A stretch of 7,352 nucleotides of DNA from a virus (lineage: Duplodnaviria; Heunggongvirae; Uroviricota; Caudoviricetes): the IMG/VR virus record IMGVR_UViG_2563366829_000008; one strand, 5' to 3'. The number at the start of each line of letters is the position of its first letter. Positions within the stretch are counted from its first letter, which is position 1. This document shows positions 3,496 through 7,291 of the stretch, one piece after another. The translations under genes and the position numbers were made by a program. Below the pieces are notes generated by a model. That model was not told where the DNA came from. It made no database searches and worked only from the letters and a program-made list of their open reading frames with translations.

Positions 3496-3648
3496 ATTAA
3501 AGAGCATTAGTTCAGATGTGAATTGACATTTTCATGGCGCAGGGTAGAGCCAGCGTGGTTGTCCGCTTTGCGTCAAAACCAGATATTACCAGATTTAGAC
3601 ATATATTCCCGATAGCCCTGCTCTGATGCTACACTCTGTGCTATTTTC

Positions 3649-4335
3649 ATGACCCCAATAAAAATATTTATGACTATTGCTGATTTCAAACGGCCTAAAT
3701 TGGAGCTCCCAAACGGGGCAAACAAACTACTACTGCACTCTTGCTGTGCTCCATGTTCCGGTGAAGTGATGGAGGCGCTTCAGGCCTCGGGAATCGACTA
3801 CACCATCTTTTTCTACAACCCGAACATTCATCCTCAGAAAGAGTATTTAATTCGTAAGGATGAAAATATTCGCTTTGCTGAACAACACGGCGTGCCGTTT
3901 ATCGATGCTGATTACGACACCGACAACTGGTTTGAACGTGCCAAAGGAATGGAATGGGAGCCTGAGAGGGGGATCCGTTGTACCATGTGTTTTGACATGC
4001 GTTTTGAGCGGACAGCGTTGTACGCTGCTGAAAATGGTTTCAGTGTGATCAGCAGTTCACTGGGCATTTCACGCTGGAAAAATATGCAGCAGGTTAACGA
4101 GTGTGGGCGGCGAGCTGTTGCGCATTATCCGGGTATGGTGTACTGGGATTATAACTGGCGCAAGCAGGGCGGCTCGTCCCGTATGATTGAAATCAGCAAG
4201 CGCGAAAAATTCTATCAGCAGGAATATTGTGGCTGTGTGTATTCTCTGCGCGATACCAATCTACACCGCAAATCTCAGGGACGCCCTCTTATCAAAATTG
4301 GCCAACTCCACTACGGAAAAGAAGAGAAGGAGTGA
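3649..4335 (+). CDS. queH: Epoxyqueuosine reductase QueH (DUF208 family)
   Basis: Contains the motifs I recall as QueH/DUF208 hallmarks: [37 protein letters not shown] and YCGCVYS (conserved Cys cluster). Start uncertain: ATG 3649 or ATG 3670, neither with a strong SD. Confidence 0.85.
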
Positions 4336-4367: not shown

Positions 4368-4396
4368 TTGGCGAGGTGACGTGAGTTAAGTAGAAT
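4368..4396 (+). promoter_or_regulatory. Candidate sigma70 promoter of the hok/mok mRNA (TTGGCG-N17-TAGAAT)
   Basis: -35 TTGGCG at 4368..4373, 17-nt spacer, -10 TAGAAT at 4391..4396. The predicted start near 4403 coincides with the 5' element (4401..4414) that is complementary to the mRNA 3' end (4778..4792), as expected for hok-family transcripts. Confidence 0.45.
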
Positions 4397-4449
4397 GGCT
4401 GCGGGTGCTTGAGGCTATCTGTCTCAGGCATGAACACTGAAAGGCAGAT

Positions 4450-4524
4450 AGAGAAAAGCCCCAGTTAACATTTCGCGTCCTGCAAGACGCTTAACATTAA
4501 TCTGAGGCCCAATCTATGTCTCAC
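4450..4524 (-). ncRNA. sok: Candidate Sok-like antisense RNA covering the mok SD and start codon (inferred)
   Basis: Inferred from hok/sok architecture. Minus-strand promoter-like TTGCCT-N17-TAACCT (plus coordinates 4559..4531) would start transcription near 4524. The antisense transcript spans the mok RBS (GAGG 4504..4507) and ATG 4516, contains the hairpin GCGTCTTGCAGGACGC, and ends in CTGGGGCTTTTCTCT. The -10 is weak; boundaries approximate. Confidence 0.3.
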
Positions 4525-4728
4525 AAATGTAGGTTAGCCTCTTACGTGCCGAAAGGCAAGGGGAAGCAGGCTATGAAGCAGCAAAAGGCGATGTTAATCG
4601 CCCTGATCGTCATCTGTTTAACCGTCATTGTGACGGCACTGGTAACGAGGAAAGACCTCTGCGAGGTACGAATCCGAACCGGCCAGACGGAGGTCGCTGT
4701 CTTCACAGCTTACGAACCTGAGGAGTAA
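4516..4728 (+). CDS. mok: Mok-like reading frame (N-terminally extended, in frame with hok; translational coupling element)
   Basis: 70-aa ORF; ATG 4516 with GAGG 8 nt upstream. It is in frame with hok and has a 19-aa basic extension (MSHKCRLASYVPKGKGKQA), the same layout as E. coli MokC (69 aa with HokC at its C-terminus, recalled). Confidence 0.55.
   Translation: MSHKCRLASYVPKGKGKQAMKQQKAMLIALIVICLTVIVTALVTRKDLCEVRIRTGQTEVAVFTAYEPEE
4573..4728 (+). CDS. hok: Hok/Gef-family type I toxin (HokD/RelF-like small membrane peptide)
   Basis: 51-aa product MKQQKAMLIALIVICLTVIVTALVTRKDLCEVRIRTGQTEVAVFTAYEPEE: a single TM helix plus the conserved CE.R..G..EVA.F.AYE motif of Hok family toxins. As far as I recall it is essentially identical to E. 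coli HokD (RelF). Confidence 0.85.
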   Translation: MKQQKAMLIALIVICLTVIVTALVTRKDLCEVRIRTGQTEVAVFTAYEPEE

Positions 4729-4797
4729 GAGACCCGGCGGGGGAGTAATCTCCCGCCACCTCTGATGTGCCAGGCATCCTCAACGCACCCGCACTTA

Positions 4798-4817
4798 ACC
4801 CGCTTCGGCGGGTTTTT
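4798..4817 (+). terminator. Rho-independent terminator after hok (ACCCGC-TTCG-GCGGGT followed by TTTTT)
   Basis: 6-bp GC-rich stem 4798..4803 / 4808..4813 with a TTCG tetraloop and a 5-T run; sits downstream of the hok stop after the fbi-like element. Confidence 0.75.
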
Positions 4818-4829
4818 GCATTAGTCTGG

Positions 4830-4858
4830 TTGACAAAAATAGAAAAATGCGAAAATAT
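4830..4858 (+). promoter_or_regulatory. Candidate promoter for the two-gene cassette (perfect -35 TTGACA; -10 ambiguous in an A-rich stretch)
   Basis: TTGACA at 4830..4835. Downstream, tgcGAAAATATG (4848..4859) offers a TG-extended GAAAAT or AAATAT -10 at 15-17 nt spacing. Lies between the hok terminator and the ATG at 4894. Confidence 0.35.
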
Positions 4859-4893
4859 GTGGTTTACGAATTCTAAAAAAAGCGAAACTTGAA

Positions 4894-5544
4894 ATGAATG
4901 AAAATCAGTTAGCTCCTTGTTGGGAATTTCAACCTTATCTTGCTGAAAACTATGTTCGCCACTTGTTGGCGGAGATCGCTAACGTACTTGAGCAGCTGTA
5001 CTATCATAAGCACGCATTAGACAGCAACTGGTCTGAAGGTGTAAGGGCTTATGATTGGGTCAGAAATCATCTTATTCAAAATGAAGATGCAATTCCTGGC
5101 CTTGAGATGATTTCCAAGGGGTTGGACTATGTAGTTGCTTTAAATAAAGTTCCGCTACAATTTACCAAAGATTGCATTAATAACCCCAAAAAGAAACATC
5201 GTCTGCGTCGAAATAAAGTAGAGTATGAGCAGCTCTCATTGTTTGGTGATGTTGAGGCTGAGCAAGATATTACATGGCGAGTCATAGCTGAGCCTTTTTT
5301 ATCCGAAGAGGGCGATGGTGAATTAGAGTCCACACTGCCTCGTTGGGAGGTAGCTCTTGTTGGATTTAATACTTATGGTGCTCAGATTAGTATAGTTTCT
5401 CATCAATCTACAGCATCGATGCCGCTTATGCCTCTTGATTATAACACACTCCCTGACGAAGCGGAGATTAATAAGGTGCCTCTTCGTCGGCGTACGAAGG
5501 ATAAAGATTTGGATGTGAGCAGTGATGGAACATCAGGTGAATAA
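4894..5544 (+). CDS. Hypothetical protein, 216 aa, no recognisable domain; first gene of AT-rich cassette (candidate toxin/effector partner)
   Basis: Long ORF in visibly AT-richer DNA than the flanking phage genes. Its stop (5542..5544) lies 20 nt inside the next gene, indicating translational coupling. Acidic C-terminal third; no catalytic motif recognised by eye. Confidence 0.75.
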   Translation: MNENQLAPCWEFQPYLAENYVRHLLAEIANVLEQLYYHKHALDSNWSEGVRAYDWVRNHLIQNEDAIPGLEMISKGLDYVVALNKVPLQFTKDCINNPKKKHRLRRNKVEYEQLSLFGDVEAEQDITWRVIAEPFLSEEGDGELESTLPRWEVALVGFNTYGAQISIVSHQSTASMPLMPLDYNTLPDEAEINKVPLRRRTKDKDLDVSSDGTSGE

Positions 5545-6628
5545 CTTCACTGAGTATCGGGGTGATAAGCTCAAACTAGCGAGAATGGCTGTTGGGCTTT
5601 CTTGTGAAGAGTTAGCCGAAAAAATTGGCAAGACAAAGCAATTCGTTAGCAAACTGGAGAAGGGGTGCAGGCCATCGGAGCAATGTCTTGAGTTAATATC
5701 TTCAGCGCTTATGATTAAGTCCAGTTTTCTTTTTACTGAACGAAAATACGCTCTGGAAAGTGATGTCTGCCATTTTCGGAGTAAGAAGTCCAGGACTCAA
5801 ACGCTGACTAATAGTGTATTGGCCAGGGCTGAGATTCTTAATATTATAATTTCTGCTGTTGAAGGTGAAATCGAATTTCCTGACGTTAACATACCGGAGC
5901 ACCCAGGGGCTGAATTACTTACTCCGAATGATATTGAGCGAGTGGCAGAAGATTGTCGCCGTGCCTGGAATTTAGGTCTTGGCCCTATATCATCAATGGT
6001 TAAATTGGCGGAGAGTTTAGGGGTAATCGTTGCGCATGTTACGGGAGTCGATGATCGTGTTGATGCTTTTACTGTTCACAATAACAGGCCTGTTATCATC
6101 AGGAACAATGTTAAAAAAAGCATATGTAGATTTCGCTCTGATTTAGGTCATGAATTAGGGCATTTAGTAATGCATGAGGGCATAACGACAGGTGATAAAC
6201 TTACGGAATCACAAGCCGATCACTTTTCGAGCGCCTTATTAGTTCCCAGGTTATCTTTCATTAAAGAATTTCCACGAATACGAGGTAAGCAATTCGACTG
6301 GAATGCTCTGGTTGAATTTAAACTTAGATGGAAAATCAGCCTTAAAATGTGTATTTATCGAGCCAGCGCATTAGGCTTATTGACCCAGGAACAGGCAAGA
6401 ACTGGCTATATGCATCTTAATTCCAGAGGGTATACGAGAGTTGAACCTGGTGATGAACTTTTGCGCCCTGAAGAACCCGGCATGCTGGCCGAGGCGATTG
6501 AAATGCTGGATGATGCAACCTGGCTAAGAATTCTTATGAAAACTGGCTTGAGCCAAGATTTAATTCGTGAGTTGTTCTCCATCAACAGACCTATTACAAA
6601 TCCAAGAAATATTTTCCAGATTGTTTGA
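5525..6628 (+). CDS. XRE-family HTH domain fused to ImmA/IrrE-family (COG2856 / M78-like) zinc metallopeptidase domain
   Basis: N-terminus LKLARMAVGLSCEELAEKIGKTKQFVSKLEKG is a classic XRE HTH. HELGH (HExxH) at 6149..6163 followed by E...ADHFSSALLVP matches the ImmA/IrrE signature. ATG 5525 (the track's 5522 is GTG). Confidence 0.85.
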   Translation: MEHQVNNFTEYRGDKLKLARMAVGLSCEELAEKIGKTKQFVSKLEKGCRPSEQCLELISSALMIKSSFLFTERKYALESDVCHFRSKKSRTQTLTNSVLARAEILNIIISAVEGEIEFPDVNIPEHPGAELLTPNDIERVAEDCRRAWNLGLGPISSMVKLAESLGVIVAHVTGVDDRVDAFTVHNNRPVIIRNNVKKSICRFRSDLGHELGHLVMHEGITTGDKLTESQADHFSSALLVPRLSFIKEFPRIRGKQFDWNALVEFKLRWKISLKMCIYRASALGLLTQEQARTGYMHLNSRGYTRVEPGDELLRPEEPGMLAEAIEMLDDATWLRILMKTGLSQDLIRELFSINRPITNPRNIFQIV

Positions 6629-6632
6629 GTAT

Positions 6633-6654
6633 ACCCGCTTCGGCGGGTTTTTTG
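6633..6654 (+). terminator. Rho-independent terminator after cassette (same hairpin as 4798..4817, followed by a T-run)
   Basis: ACCCGC-TTCG-GCGGGT stem-loop 6633..6648 followed by TTTTTT; 5 nt after the stop codon at 6626..6628. Confidence 0.75.
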
Positions 6655-6737
6655 TTTTTATTTTCAACGTGTTTGAAGTTTTGGACGGTGCCAGAATAGA
6701 ATCAAAAATACTTAAGTAGCGCGCAGGGAGAAGAGGG

Positions 6738-6959
6738 ATGGACCCCGAACAGGGGGAGTGCTATTTATCTGGAAGGATTCTGTTGATGAAAATCGAAGAA
6801 TTACGTGAAATTTTTAGTGAAGATGGCCTCTATGCTGTGCGCGTTGAGAATGGGGGTATTACCTACACAGCGTTAATTCCTGATGATCATGTAGTGTTAT
6901 CTGTTGAGGCATTCATTGAATACTTGGAAAGACTCGGTTTCAAGGTAGTTCGGGAATAA
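6738..6959 (+). CDS. Small hypothetical prophage protein (alternative start ATG 6786)
   Basis: ATG 6738 has GGGAG 7 nt upstream; ATG 6786 has GGAAGGA 8 nt upstream and begins the AT-richer part (MKIEELREIF...). No family recognised. Confidence 0.5.
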   Translation: MDPEQGECYLSGRILLMKIEELREIFSEDGLYAVRVENGGITYTALIPDDHVVLSVEAFIEYLERLGFKVVRE

Positions 6960-7018
6960 GTTATAATACGTGAGCCAGCCTGAACAACTGGCAACCTGCA
7001 GCGCCATTGGAGATGACA

Positions 7019-7291
7019 ATGGCGCATAATTTCAAATTTCGCAATTCTGATTCTGCCTTTGCCAGCAGGCACGGGTGGCGTTCTCACGCATTCAAATATG
7101 ACTGGTATCAGCACGATCCCTGTACTGAAGAACAGGCCGAATGGCTGATTCATAACTACCGCAGACGTGGATATGAGTTTAGGAAAGCCCTCACCCTCGA
7201 TTATCGTCACTGGATAATCTACGTCAGACTCCCTTATTCCGAACGCCCACCGCGTCCGTCCCGCACATTCCAGCAACGCATCTGGAGGTAA
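7019..7291 (+). CDS. Small hypothetical prophage protein (about 90 aa)
   Basis: ATG 7019 with GGAG 6 nt upstream (the track's 7007 start is an upstream in-frame ATG). Sequence looks like a genuine protein (...EEQAEWLIHNYRRRGYEFRKALTLDYRHW...). The overlapping minus-strand ORF 6887..7276 looks less protein-like. Confidence 0.5.
   Translation: MAHNFKFRNSDSAFASRHGWRSHAFKYDWYQHDPCTEEQAEWLIHNYRRRGYEFRKALTLDYRHWIIYVRLPYSERPPRPSRTFQQRIWR

Follow-up and report, generated by a model that had tools for sequence, protein, structure and literature searches.

Several described systems bear on the way in which extra genes enter, leave and change places in phage genomes. Morons were defined in the lambdoid phages HK97 and HK022 (Juhala et al. 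2000, reviewed in Cumby, Davidson & Maxwell 2012, PMC3594210), while the promoter-early stem-loops (PeSLs) of T4-type phages are promoter/terminator cassettes that bracket non-essential open reading frames (ORFs), bound insertions and deletions, and recombine into mini-circles (Arbiol et al. 2010, PMC2839356; Comeau et al. 2014, PMC4122927). The mosaicism of lambdoid phages has its basis in homologous recombination, the phage recombinases responsible being Rad52-like and tolerant of homology that is short or diverged (De Paepe et al. 2014, PMC3945230), and the defence hotspots of P2/P4 prophages are fixed slots between conserved genes in which anti-phage and toxin-antitoxin (TA) systems are rapidly swapped (PMC9122126; PMC13586616). 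One TA defence system is RosmerTA, whose toxin is of unknown function and whose antitoxin carries a Zn-peptidase domain (Millman et al. 2022; bioRxiv 10.1101/2022.05.11.491447). Here we analyse a stretch of 7,352 nucleotides from a virus of the Caudoviricetes (IMG/VR record IMGVR_UViG_2563366829_000008), hereafter the window, in which two identical copies of a 20-nt hairpin, ACCCGCTTCGGCGGGTTTTT (hereafter T), are placed on the two sides of a RosmerTA-like cassette, the first after the toxin gene hok and the second after the gene encoding a helix-turn-helix (HTH) peptidase, rmrA.

The explanation that we prefer, and to which we assign as a whole a probability of roughly 0.6, is that the two copies of T are the rho-independent terminators of two adjacent and independent transcription units, and that this hairpin has acted as a short-homology joint for the gain, the loss and the recombination of cargo. 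The closest documented mechanism is that of the PeSLs; the case is in our opinion a new and well-resolved instance of principles already described (morons, prophage defence hotspots, and the exchange of modules at short conserved regulatory sequences) and not a new kind of system.

The repeated hairpin and the empty site

T is present on the + strand exactly twice in the window, at the two places given in the initial annotation of this DNA, and no further match appeared in the window when two mismatches were allowed. The pair is the sole direct repeat of at least 20 nt within positions 4600-6800, and none of 200 dinucleotide shuffles of the window contained T, which rules out a chance repeat. 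Copy 1 lies 69 nt past the stop codon of hok/mok (4728) and copy 2 lies 4 nt past that of rmrA (6628). Also the statement that the surrounding sequences differ turned out to be right, and from the very first base: copy 1 is preceded by CTTA and followed by GCATT, copy 2 by GTAT and TGTTT, respectively. The repeat is exactly 20 nt long because the neighbouring bases differ on either side, and a longer hidden repeat around T is thereby ruled out. Both copies fold into a CCCGC/GCGGG stem closed by a UUCG loop and followed by a U-tract, with folding energies of -15.1 and -10.9 kcal/mol (z about -3); a consensus scan called a terminator-like site at each of them, and with a stem of 6-7 bp and a T5/T6 tract they have the sequence features of intrinsic terminators.

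The window was compared with relatives lacking the cassette. Among the fetched loci that were searched, L016 spans the junction obtained in silico by removing positions 4818-6652 from the window, with 97.4% identity over 1135 bp, and it harbors one T; its left flank is the flank of copy 1 (93-95%) and its right flank is that of copy 2, with T5 instead of T6. The window therefore corresponds to the L016 arrangement plus a 1835-bp insertion flanked by a 20-bp repeat; by the symmetry of the repeat, the bounds of the insert could equally be 4798-6632. In the same way, the Qin prophage of E. coli K-12 (L003) shows hok, one T and then the rem module, the cassette being absent. The initial annotation had read the duplicated hairpin as a signature of insertion or recombination, to be checked by looking for a single terminator in cassette-less relatives: the insertion, with its single-T empty site, is now seen directly, while recombination is the mechanism that we propose for it.

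The inserted DNA differs in composition from its surroundings, its G+C content (GC) being ~0.40-0.43 across 4801-6600 (about 0.41) versus 0.47-0.55 (about 0.50) in the flanks. It embeds two genes overlapping by 23 nt. The product of the first, rmrT, had no match in a Pfam search and is recognized by the PADLOC model for RmrT, whereas that of the second, rmrA, matches both the RmrA model and the Pfam families HTH_3 (5.2e-7) and Peptidase_M78 (6.4e-11), with a HELGH motif in its translation (Table 1). By profile match and domain content, rmrT-rmrA is thus a putative member of RosmerTA, with which it shares the two-gene operon and the Zn-peptidase domain of the antitoxin; the assignment is one of sequence membership, and a role in defence would follow from it. 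The cassette is found in 237 of the 5,426 complete E. coli genomes, in 224 of them at an identity of at least 99%; E. coli ML35 (NZ_CP025747) is one strain with the identical cassette. In the same 5,426 genomes hok has roughly 12,700 places. In E. coli FDAARGOS_1249 (NZ_CP069459.1, 1256021-1260099) an IS5-family transposase interrupts an otherwise identical cassette.

Compared with the morons of lambdoid phages, the cassette consists of extra DNA between genes that are adjacent in relatives, it has a deviating GC, its own promoter-like element and its own factor-independent terminator, and it carries a cargo of the lysogen-benefiting kind (RosmerTA). By four of the five defining features it is a moron, the activity of its promoter being presumed. 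The moron concept is silent, on the other hand, on a terminator that matches the one of the upstream unit, and on one hairpin joining many cargos.

Direct repeats around a discrete insertion and a precise empty site are also what might be expected from a site-specific or transposon-like element, T being in this case a target-site duplication, an att-like site or a hairpin recognized by a dedicated recombinase (IS200/IS605-type, integron-like or homing); indeed, hairpins are substrates of some single-stranded DNA transposases. We consider this origin extremely improbable. The cassette encodes rmrT and rmrA only, with no integrase, transposase or nuclease domain, and terminal inverted repeats were not found, which argues against a dedicated mobile element and led us to reject a transposon with its target-site duplication. 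Moreover, 20 bp is long for such a duplication and the sequence is that of a generic terminator, and the RosmerTA cassettes placed outside the hok context lack the upstream copy and have a different loop, a cassette in a tail operon (L270) having a single T.

The cargo hotspot after the hok terminator

The interval extending from the hok terminator to the promoter of the ydfU operon is a cargo hotspot. In a survey of 124 junctions between hok and T, many of them from near-identical prophages, every comparator departs from the window immediately 3' of the T-tract of copy 1, and about 15 classes of content diverge directly after that tract: an "empty" class (48 junctions), the rem class (38), an AT-rich class (10) and several cargos. 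In the 48 empty loci the conserved leader hairpin of the ydfU operon is located 44 nt after T, and the same anchor motif is found after every type of cargo. The AT-rich class is represented by a 335-bp insert without annotated genes, at L006:770-1105 and in nine similar loci; a small RNA, a remnant or a small ORF are candidates for its content.

Wherever the conserved right-hand sequence brackets an insert of at least 800 bp, the insert has a second hairpin copy at its end. Six types of bracketed cargo were recognized, and the direct repeats around them measure 20-23 nt. The exact T closes the RosmerTA of the window, a third RosmerTA subtype (L150), a module of XRE-HTH and M78-peptidase type (L137) and a Fic/DOC module (L117 and L180); loop variants differing by one nucleotide close the RosmerTA of phage Tritos (CTCG) and a variant 94% identical to the cassette of the window (L231, TACG). 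The hok slot thus holds at least four DNA-distinct RosmerTA variants (window, L231, Tritos and L150). The joints are also combinatorial. Downstream of the Fic/DOC cargo and its T, L117 and L180 differ in sequence; after the window-type RosmerTA and its T comes either a rem-like module (~30 loci) or the empty-type leader (4 loci); and different cargos with T share one and the same downstream leader. That T borders exchanged cargo at the hok locus, as had been surmised from the window, is therefore borne out by the contents of the slot, by the hairpin ends that they share and by their joints. Tandem arrays of three or more T-bracketed cargos, of the integron-like kind, were not found among the 124 junctions. 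The slot resembles the defence hotspots of P2/P4 prophages in being a fixed place between conserved genes where anti-phage and TA systems are quickly replaced; the phage family and the slot are others, since the present one extends from hokD to ydfU in lambdoid prophages.

These data could also be looked at in a different way, that is, by assuming that cargo lands at random through illegitimate insertion and that the only survivors are the insertions placed past the 3' end of the hok transcript but before the promoter that comes next; later exchanges would have made use of the long conserved flanks (hok on one side, the 94-aa gene and ydfU on the other), with T as a passenger. If T is the functional 3' end of the hok module, variation must start after it in any case, the identity of the flanks exceeds 90% over hundreds of bp, and the left junction of the tail-operon slot described below has no hairpin; this is, moreover, the classical Hendrix-type view (cited in PMC3945230). 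We nonetheless judge it unlikely, as it leaves unexplained why unrelated cargos have the same hairpin and loop at their 3' ends, and why the same cargo with its T is joined to different downstream sequences with the switch exactly at T (L117 versus L180; window versus L231). In addition, De Paepe et al. came to the conclusion that exchanges dependent on homology are the dominant source of lambdoid mosaicism (PMC3945230).

The slot on the 5' side of hok is variable too (window 3496-4335; L003:1-443; L231:1-955). In the window and in L001 it contains an AT-rich stretch followed by QueH, an epoxyqueuosine reductase; K-12 Qin has RelBE in this place, and the content of L231 is different again.

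Loop sequence, distribution of T and the origin of copy 2

Relatives of RmrA with 90-92% identity are also found outside the hok context, for instance in a slot with a DUF550 gene on one side and, on the other, a truncated gene for a DNA methyltransferase (L230 and others). They keep the TTGGTTGACAAAA promoter box, the upstream hairpin is mostly absent, and they end in CCCGC-loop-GCGGG-T6 with the loops TATAT, TGCTT, TGCAT, TTCAT and others; at the hok site the loop of the cassette terminator is TTCG (~30 loci) or TACG (4 loci). The presence of the same stem with other loops at sites other than hok implies that the cassette brings its own generic-stem terminator, which was one of the possibilities put forward at the beginning for a cassette inserted next to a resident terminator. 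The loop depends on the context. In 1.0 Mb of hok-bearing prophage loci, T-tailed hairpins with the CCCGC stem number 66 outside the hotspot, and none of these has a sense TTCG loop; of the 14 CCCGC-stem hairpins located no more than 2.5 kb downstream of hok-T, six have it, and two more have CTCG.

T itself is far from rare. A scan of viral contigs retrieved it in at least 120 contigs, with 124 occurrences among the matches listed; about 20 of these adjoin hok and about 100 are in unrelated contexts, in contigs whose GC ranges from 0.30 to 0.67. At least 120 bacterial matches were found as well, in Pseudomonas, Serratia, Burkholderiales, Nitrosospira, Bacillota, Bacteroidota and Saccharibacteria. 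The CCCGC/GCGGG stem, in turn, represents ~60% of the strict terminator-like hairpins in the same 1.0 Mb of prophage loci. Identity of T or of its stem is by itself no proof of common descent, because T is generic in viruses and bacteria and the stem is dominant in these prophages. We accordingly ruled out T as a specific marker of the cassette, since it is a generic terminator of phages and bacteria, and stem identity as evidence of shared descent, the loop alone being informative. The initial annotation had stated that a ubiquitous 20-mer bearing no relation to variable cargo would speak against its idea; ubiquity was indeed found, but at the hok locus T is tied to variable cargo. More in general, an identical 20-mer that corresponds to a generic terminator should be taken as weak evidence of common descent unless the comparative context backs it.

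Convergence must also be weighed, that is, that hok and the cassette each carry independently a thermodynamically optimal generic terminator (a 5-bp GC stem, UUCG and a U-tract) under selection for strong termination and insulation. The ~100 unrelated viral contexts and the many bacterial phyla with an exact T fit this idea, as do the prevalence of the stem in these prophages and its presence in the cassette terminator away from hok. We hold convergence alone to be quite improbable, as the TTCG or TACG loop is found only beside a resident T, loops of 5-6 nt being present elsewhere in cassettes that are 90-92% identical, and as the sense TTCG loop is confined to the hotspot in the counts reported above. 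Furthermore, the exact T, with 0-3 flanking bases in addition, is common to four cargos unrelated to each other, and the sequence past copy 2, with the length of its T-tract, is the one past the single T of the empty sites.

Some occurrences of T away from hok deserve mention in their own right. The hairpin is often placed directly 5' of a Shine-Dalgarno sequence in phage late/tail operons of widely differing GC, and 21 of the 124 viral occurrences among the matches listed (L007-L126) have a GCCYGGAG-type motif within a few bases, with a start codon 5-9 nt further on. This suggests a recurrent intergenic design composed of a hairpin and a putative ribosome-binding site. Two exact copies of T are 151 bp apart in a Serratia locus (L286), after tandem tRNA-like repeats, and 992 bp apart in a Stutzerimonas locus (L341), as part of a longer repeat around a csp-like gene; the former being a tandem tRNA-associated terminator and the latter a csp-associated repeat, neither was retained as a parallel of the window.

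A second slot in a tail operon

RosmerTA is also found in a lambda-like tail operon (L270, 1777-3650), where it separates the tape-measure gene from a gpM-like gene, with one exact T directly before the ribosome-binding site of gpM and no upstream copy; a location in the tail operon is also that of the original moron, gene 15 of HK97. The same tape-measure/gpM-like slot holds in L041 and L062 a gene for a 267-aa lipoprotein-like protein, whose N-terminus matches DUF6694, and this cargo also ends in an exact T. The cargos of the tail operon have a GC of 0.42 versus 0.51-0.53 in the flanks, and their left junctions start right after the stop codon of the tape-measure gene, without a hairpin. From these ends it can be concluded that T recurs, in two slots at least, as the joint on the 3' side of low-GC morons.

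A model for the assembly of the locus

Bringing these observations together, we propose that a RosmerTA moron with its own terminator was inserted directly after the hok terminator. The native terminator of the cassette would already have had the CCCGC/GCGGG stem and the U-tract, and recombination or gene conversion with the resident hok terminator, which is the direction that we presume, would then have made the two copies identical, leaving the 20-bp direct repeat. Phage recombinases of the Red-beta/RecT type, acting by single-strand annealing, or copy-choice at the hairpin, would be the likely agents. Recombination between the two copies of T would precisely delete the cassette and give back a single-T site of the L016 type.

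As to the homology required, efficient pairing is reported to need a segment of at least 23-27 bp with Red-beta and of at least 31-34 bp with RecA (PMC3945230). The exchanges described by De Paepe et al. (2014, PMC3945230) occur between lambdoid phages and defective prophages (Qin, Rac and DLP12), and the present locus is of the Qin/Rac type; however, they involve homology extending over hundreds of bp, in which the perfect segments measure 23 bp or more, whereas here there is a single hairpin of 20-23 bp. A joint of this length is plausibly workable on evolutionary time scales.

Several points weigh against the joint that we propose. With only 20-23 bp, T is at or below the minimal pairing segment, so that crossovers at T should be rare or inefficient. 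T is ubiquitous and probably favoured by convergence, its stem is dominant, and part of the identity between the copies could be convergent. A left edge of variation at T is expected anyway, T being the end of the conserved hok module, and ordinary recombination in the conserved flanking genes can swap cargo without T. The hok-bearing loci are redundant, so that our counts are indicative and do not represent independent events. Lastly, the consensus scan called no full sigma-70 -35/-10 consensus in the 5' region of the cassette, and because of this we infer the promoter/operator function of that region.

Organization of the window

The window represents the early-right region of a Qin/Rac-type lambdoid prophage of E. 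coli. Its genes are, in order, a YdaT-like gene, an O-like initiator with a DnaT domain, a lambda P-like gene, DUF1627, DUF977, QueH and mok/hok; downstream of the cassette there are the rem-like ORF, the conserved 94-aa gene and the start of ydfU (DUF968). The features around the two copies of T are listed in Table 1.

Table 1. Position, strand and supporting data of the features surrounding the two hairpin copies in the window
Feature	Position	Strand	Basis and remarks
Promoter-like site upstream of the hok/mok transcript	4368..4396	+	TTGGCG-17-TAGAAT, consensus scan; prediction
tac element, 5'	4402-4414	+	Pairs with 4778-4791 in the predicted fold
hok/sok regulatory region	4403..4578	+	Rfam RF01794 sok, 120.5 bits, E 7.5e-28
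mok ORF (70 aa) enclosing hok (51 aa, ATG at 4573)	4516..4728	+	ORF list; Pfam HOK_GEF 3e-23
fbi-like 3' element of the hok mRNA	4778..4791	+	Predicted pairing with the 5' end (fold-back inhibition)
Terminator copy 1 (T)	4798..4817	+	Predicted intrinsic terminator of the hok mRNA; left edge of the variable region
Inserted segment, 1835 bp	4818..6652	+	Promoter region, rmrT, rmrA and copy 2
Cassette 5' control region (putative)	4827..4873	+	TGGTTGAC with -35-like TTGACA at 4830-4835; second motif TGGTTTAC at 4860-4867
rmrT (216 aa), RosmerTA toxin-like	4894..5544	+	PADLOC RmrT PDLC03929 4.6e-25; PHROG 5786 8e-85
rmrA (368 aa), antitoxin-like, XRE-HTH and M78/ImmA Zn-peptidase	5522..6628	+	PADLOC RmrA PDLC03943 6.2e-105
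Terminator copy 2 (T)	6633..6652	+	Predicted terminator of the rmrTA operon; joint to the downstream rem-like module
rem-like module	6673..6959	+	Promoter-like site 6673-6702; 73-aa ORF 6738-6959, PHROG 340
Right edge of the variable region	6962..6992	+	TATAAT box, then conserved hairpin GCCAGCCTGAACAACTGGC, 5' of the 94-aa gene and ydfU
Conserved 94-aa gene before ydfU (DUF968)	7007..7291	+	PHROG 1212 5e-37; right-hand conserved flank

The fold-back model of hok/sok regulation is well established. In the window, the tac/fbi pairing is present in both the minimum free energy and the centroid folds of positions 4402-4817 (-168 kcal/mol, z -5.9), and the position of the predicted hok/mok promoter agrees with that of the sok/hok match of Rfam. 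Since the fbi-like element stops just 5 nt short of the stem of T, the hok transcript should have its 3' end at copy 1, which should thus belong to the hok module as one of its integral parts. The hok gene is annotated as hokD in homologous loci. Likeness to the type I TA system hok/sok (Gerdes and co-workers) thus concerns the mok/hok ORFs, the sok match, the tac/fbi pairing and the 3' terminator hairpin; this hok is an ordinary one, with the difference that its terminator doubles as the boundary of a cargo slot.

As for the cassette promoter region, the perfect -35 hexamer is kept 5' of rmrT in hok and non-hok contexts (L230 and L270) and in other RosmerTA subtypes. The motif TGGTTKAC is found twice upstream of rmrT, with the two copies ~33 nt apart (window 4827-4834 and 4860-4873), in all the RosmerTA variants examined, non-hok contexts included (L230:1185-1270; L270:1790-1875; L004:772-860; L002:729-815), and it is a candidate operator for RmrA, through its HTH domain, overlapping the -35 box. 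The proximal copy, TGGTTTACGAATTC, is close to TGGTTTACAATTC in the promoter region of the 94-aa/ydfU operon of empty sites, a resemblance for which shared regulation, the persistence of part of an earlier cassette or a composite terminator-promoter joint may be considered.

On the right side, the rem-like module is homologous to the rem region of K-12, which directly follows the single T there, and the 94-aa gene is annotated in homologous loci as a hypothetical protein followed by DUF968. At the right edge (window 6962-7003) the box is TATAAT or TACAAT, and relatives carry a second hairpin, CTGCTGCGCCAGCAG, in the leader of the 94-aa/ydfU operon; the hairpins of this leader possibly constitute a regulatory leader. 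Finally, closely spaced GTCACG repeats (e.g., ATGTCACGACATGTCACGGCGTGTCAC) form two clusters at 880-950 and 1165-1215, inside the O-like replication initiator gene (750-1796), and by eye they resemble the iterons of lambda ori-type origins.

Relation to the PeSLs and significance

The resemblance to the PeSLs concerns a repeated element with a terminator stem-loop that brackets non-essential ORFs in plastic regions, and that bounds indels and replacements between close relatives, as we also find here. In the PeSLs, recombination between two copies deletes the DNA between them, an event which in our case is proposed. PeSLs, however, are composite (a strong early promoter plus a stem-loop), they are ~50-70 bp long and they are present in many copies per genome of virulent myoviruses, whereas here there is a terminator alone, of 20-23 bp, in two copies per locus. 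No sense TTCG-loop copy was found beyond the hotspot in the 1.0 Mb of hok-bearing prophage loci, at variance with the many copies of the PeSLs; the TGGTTKACA box is located 9-21 nt past T in the RosmerTA cassettes and in the empty site, and it is missing from the rem, L006, L093 and L117 classes. Given that dispersed copies were not found in these loci and that a composite unit is doubtful, the locus should not be filed as a PeSL. One might still imagine that the UUCG terminator, possibly with the TGGTTKACA box, is a PeSL-like mobile regulatory joint, and that low-GC defence and TA morons ending in T form a common pool, shuttled by Red/RecT-type annealing or by copy-choice among T-bearing slots (hokD-ydfU; tape-measure/gpM); T-junction circles might be involved, and the 20-bp repeat would be an integration footprint. 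We regard this extension, in all its parts, as doubtful.

In our literature search we found no description of the hokD-ydfU slot and no account of terminators as joints of defence hotspots, the P2/P4 paper mentioning none. The locus offers an example, at base resolution, of how defence cargo is slotted and swapped among lambdoid prophages, with one generic hairpin as the shared joint. With the hok terminator as the left anchor and the leader of the ydfU operon as the right one, thousands of E. coli prophages can be mined for cargo not yet known, including the unannotated classes met here. If the joint is mechanistic, then terminators would represent a simple and general source of short homology for the modular exchange of temperate phages, and the PeSL idea would be extended beyond the T4-type phages.

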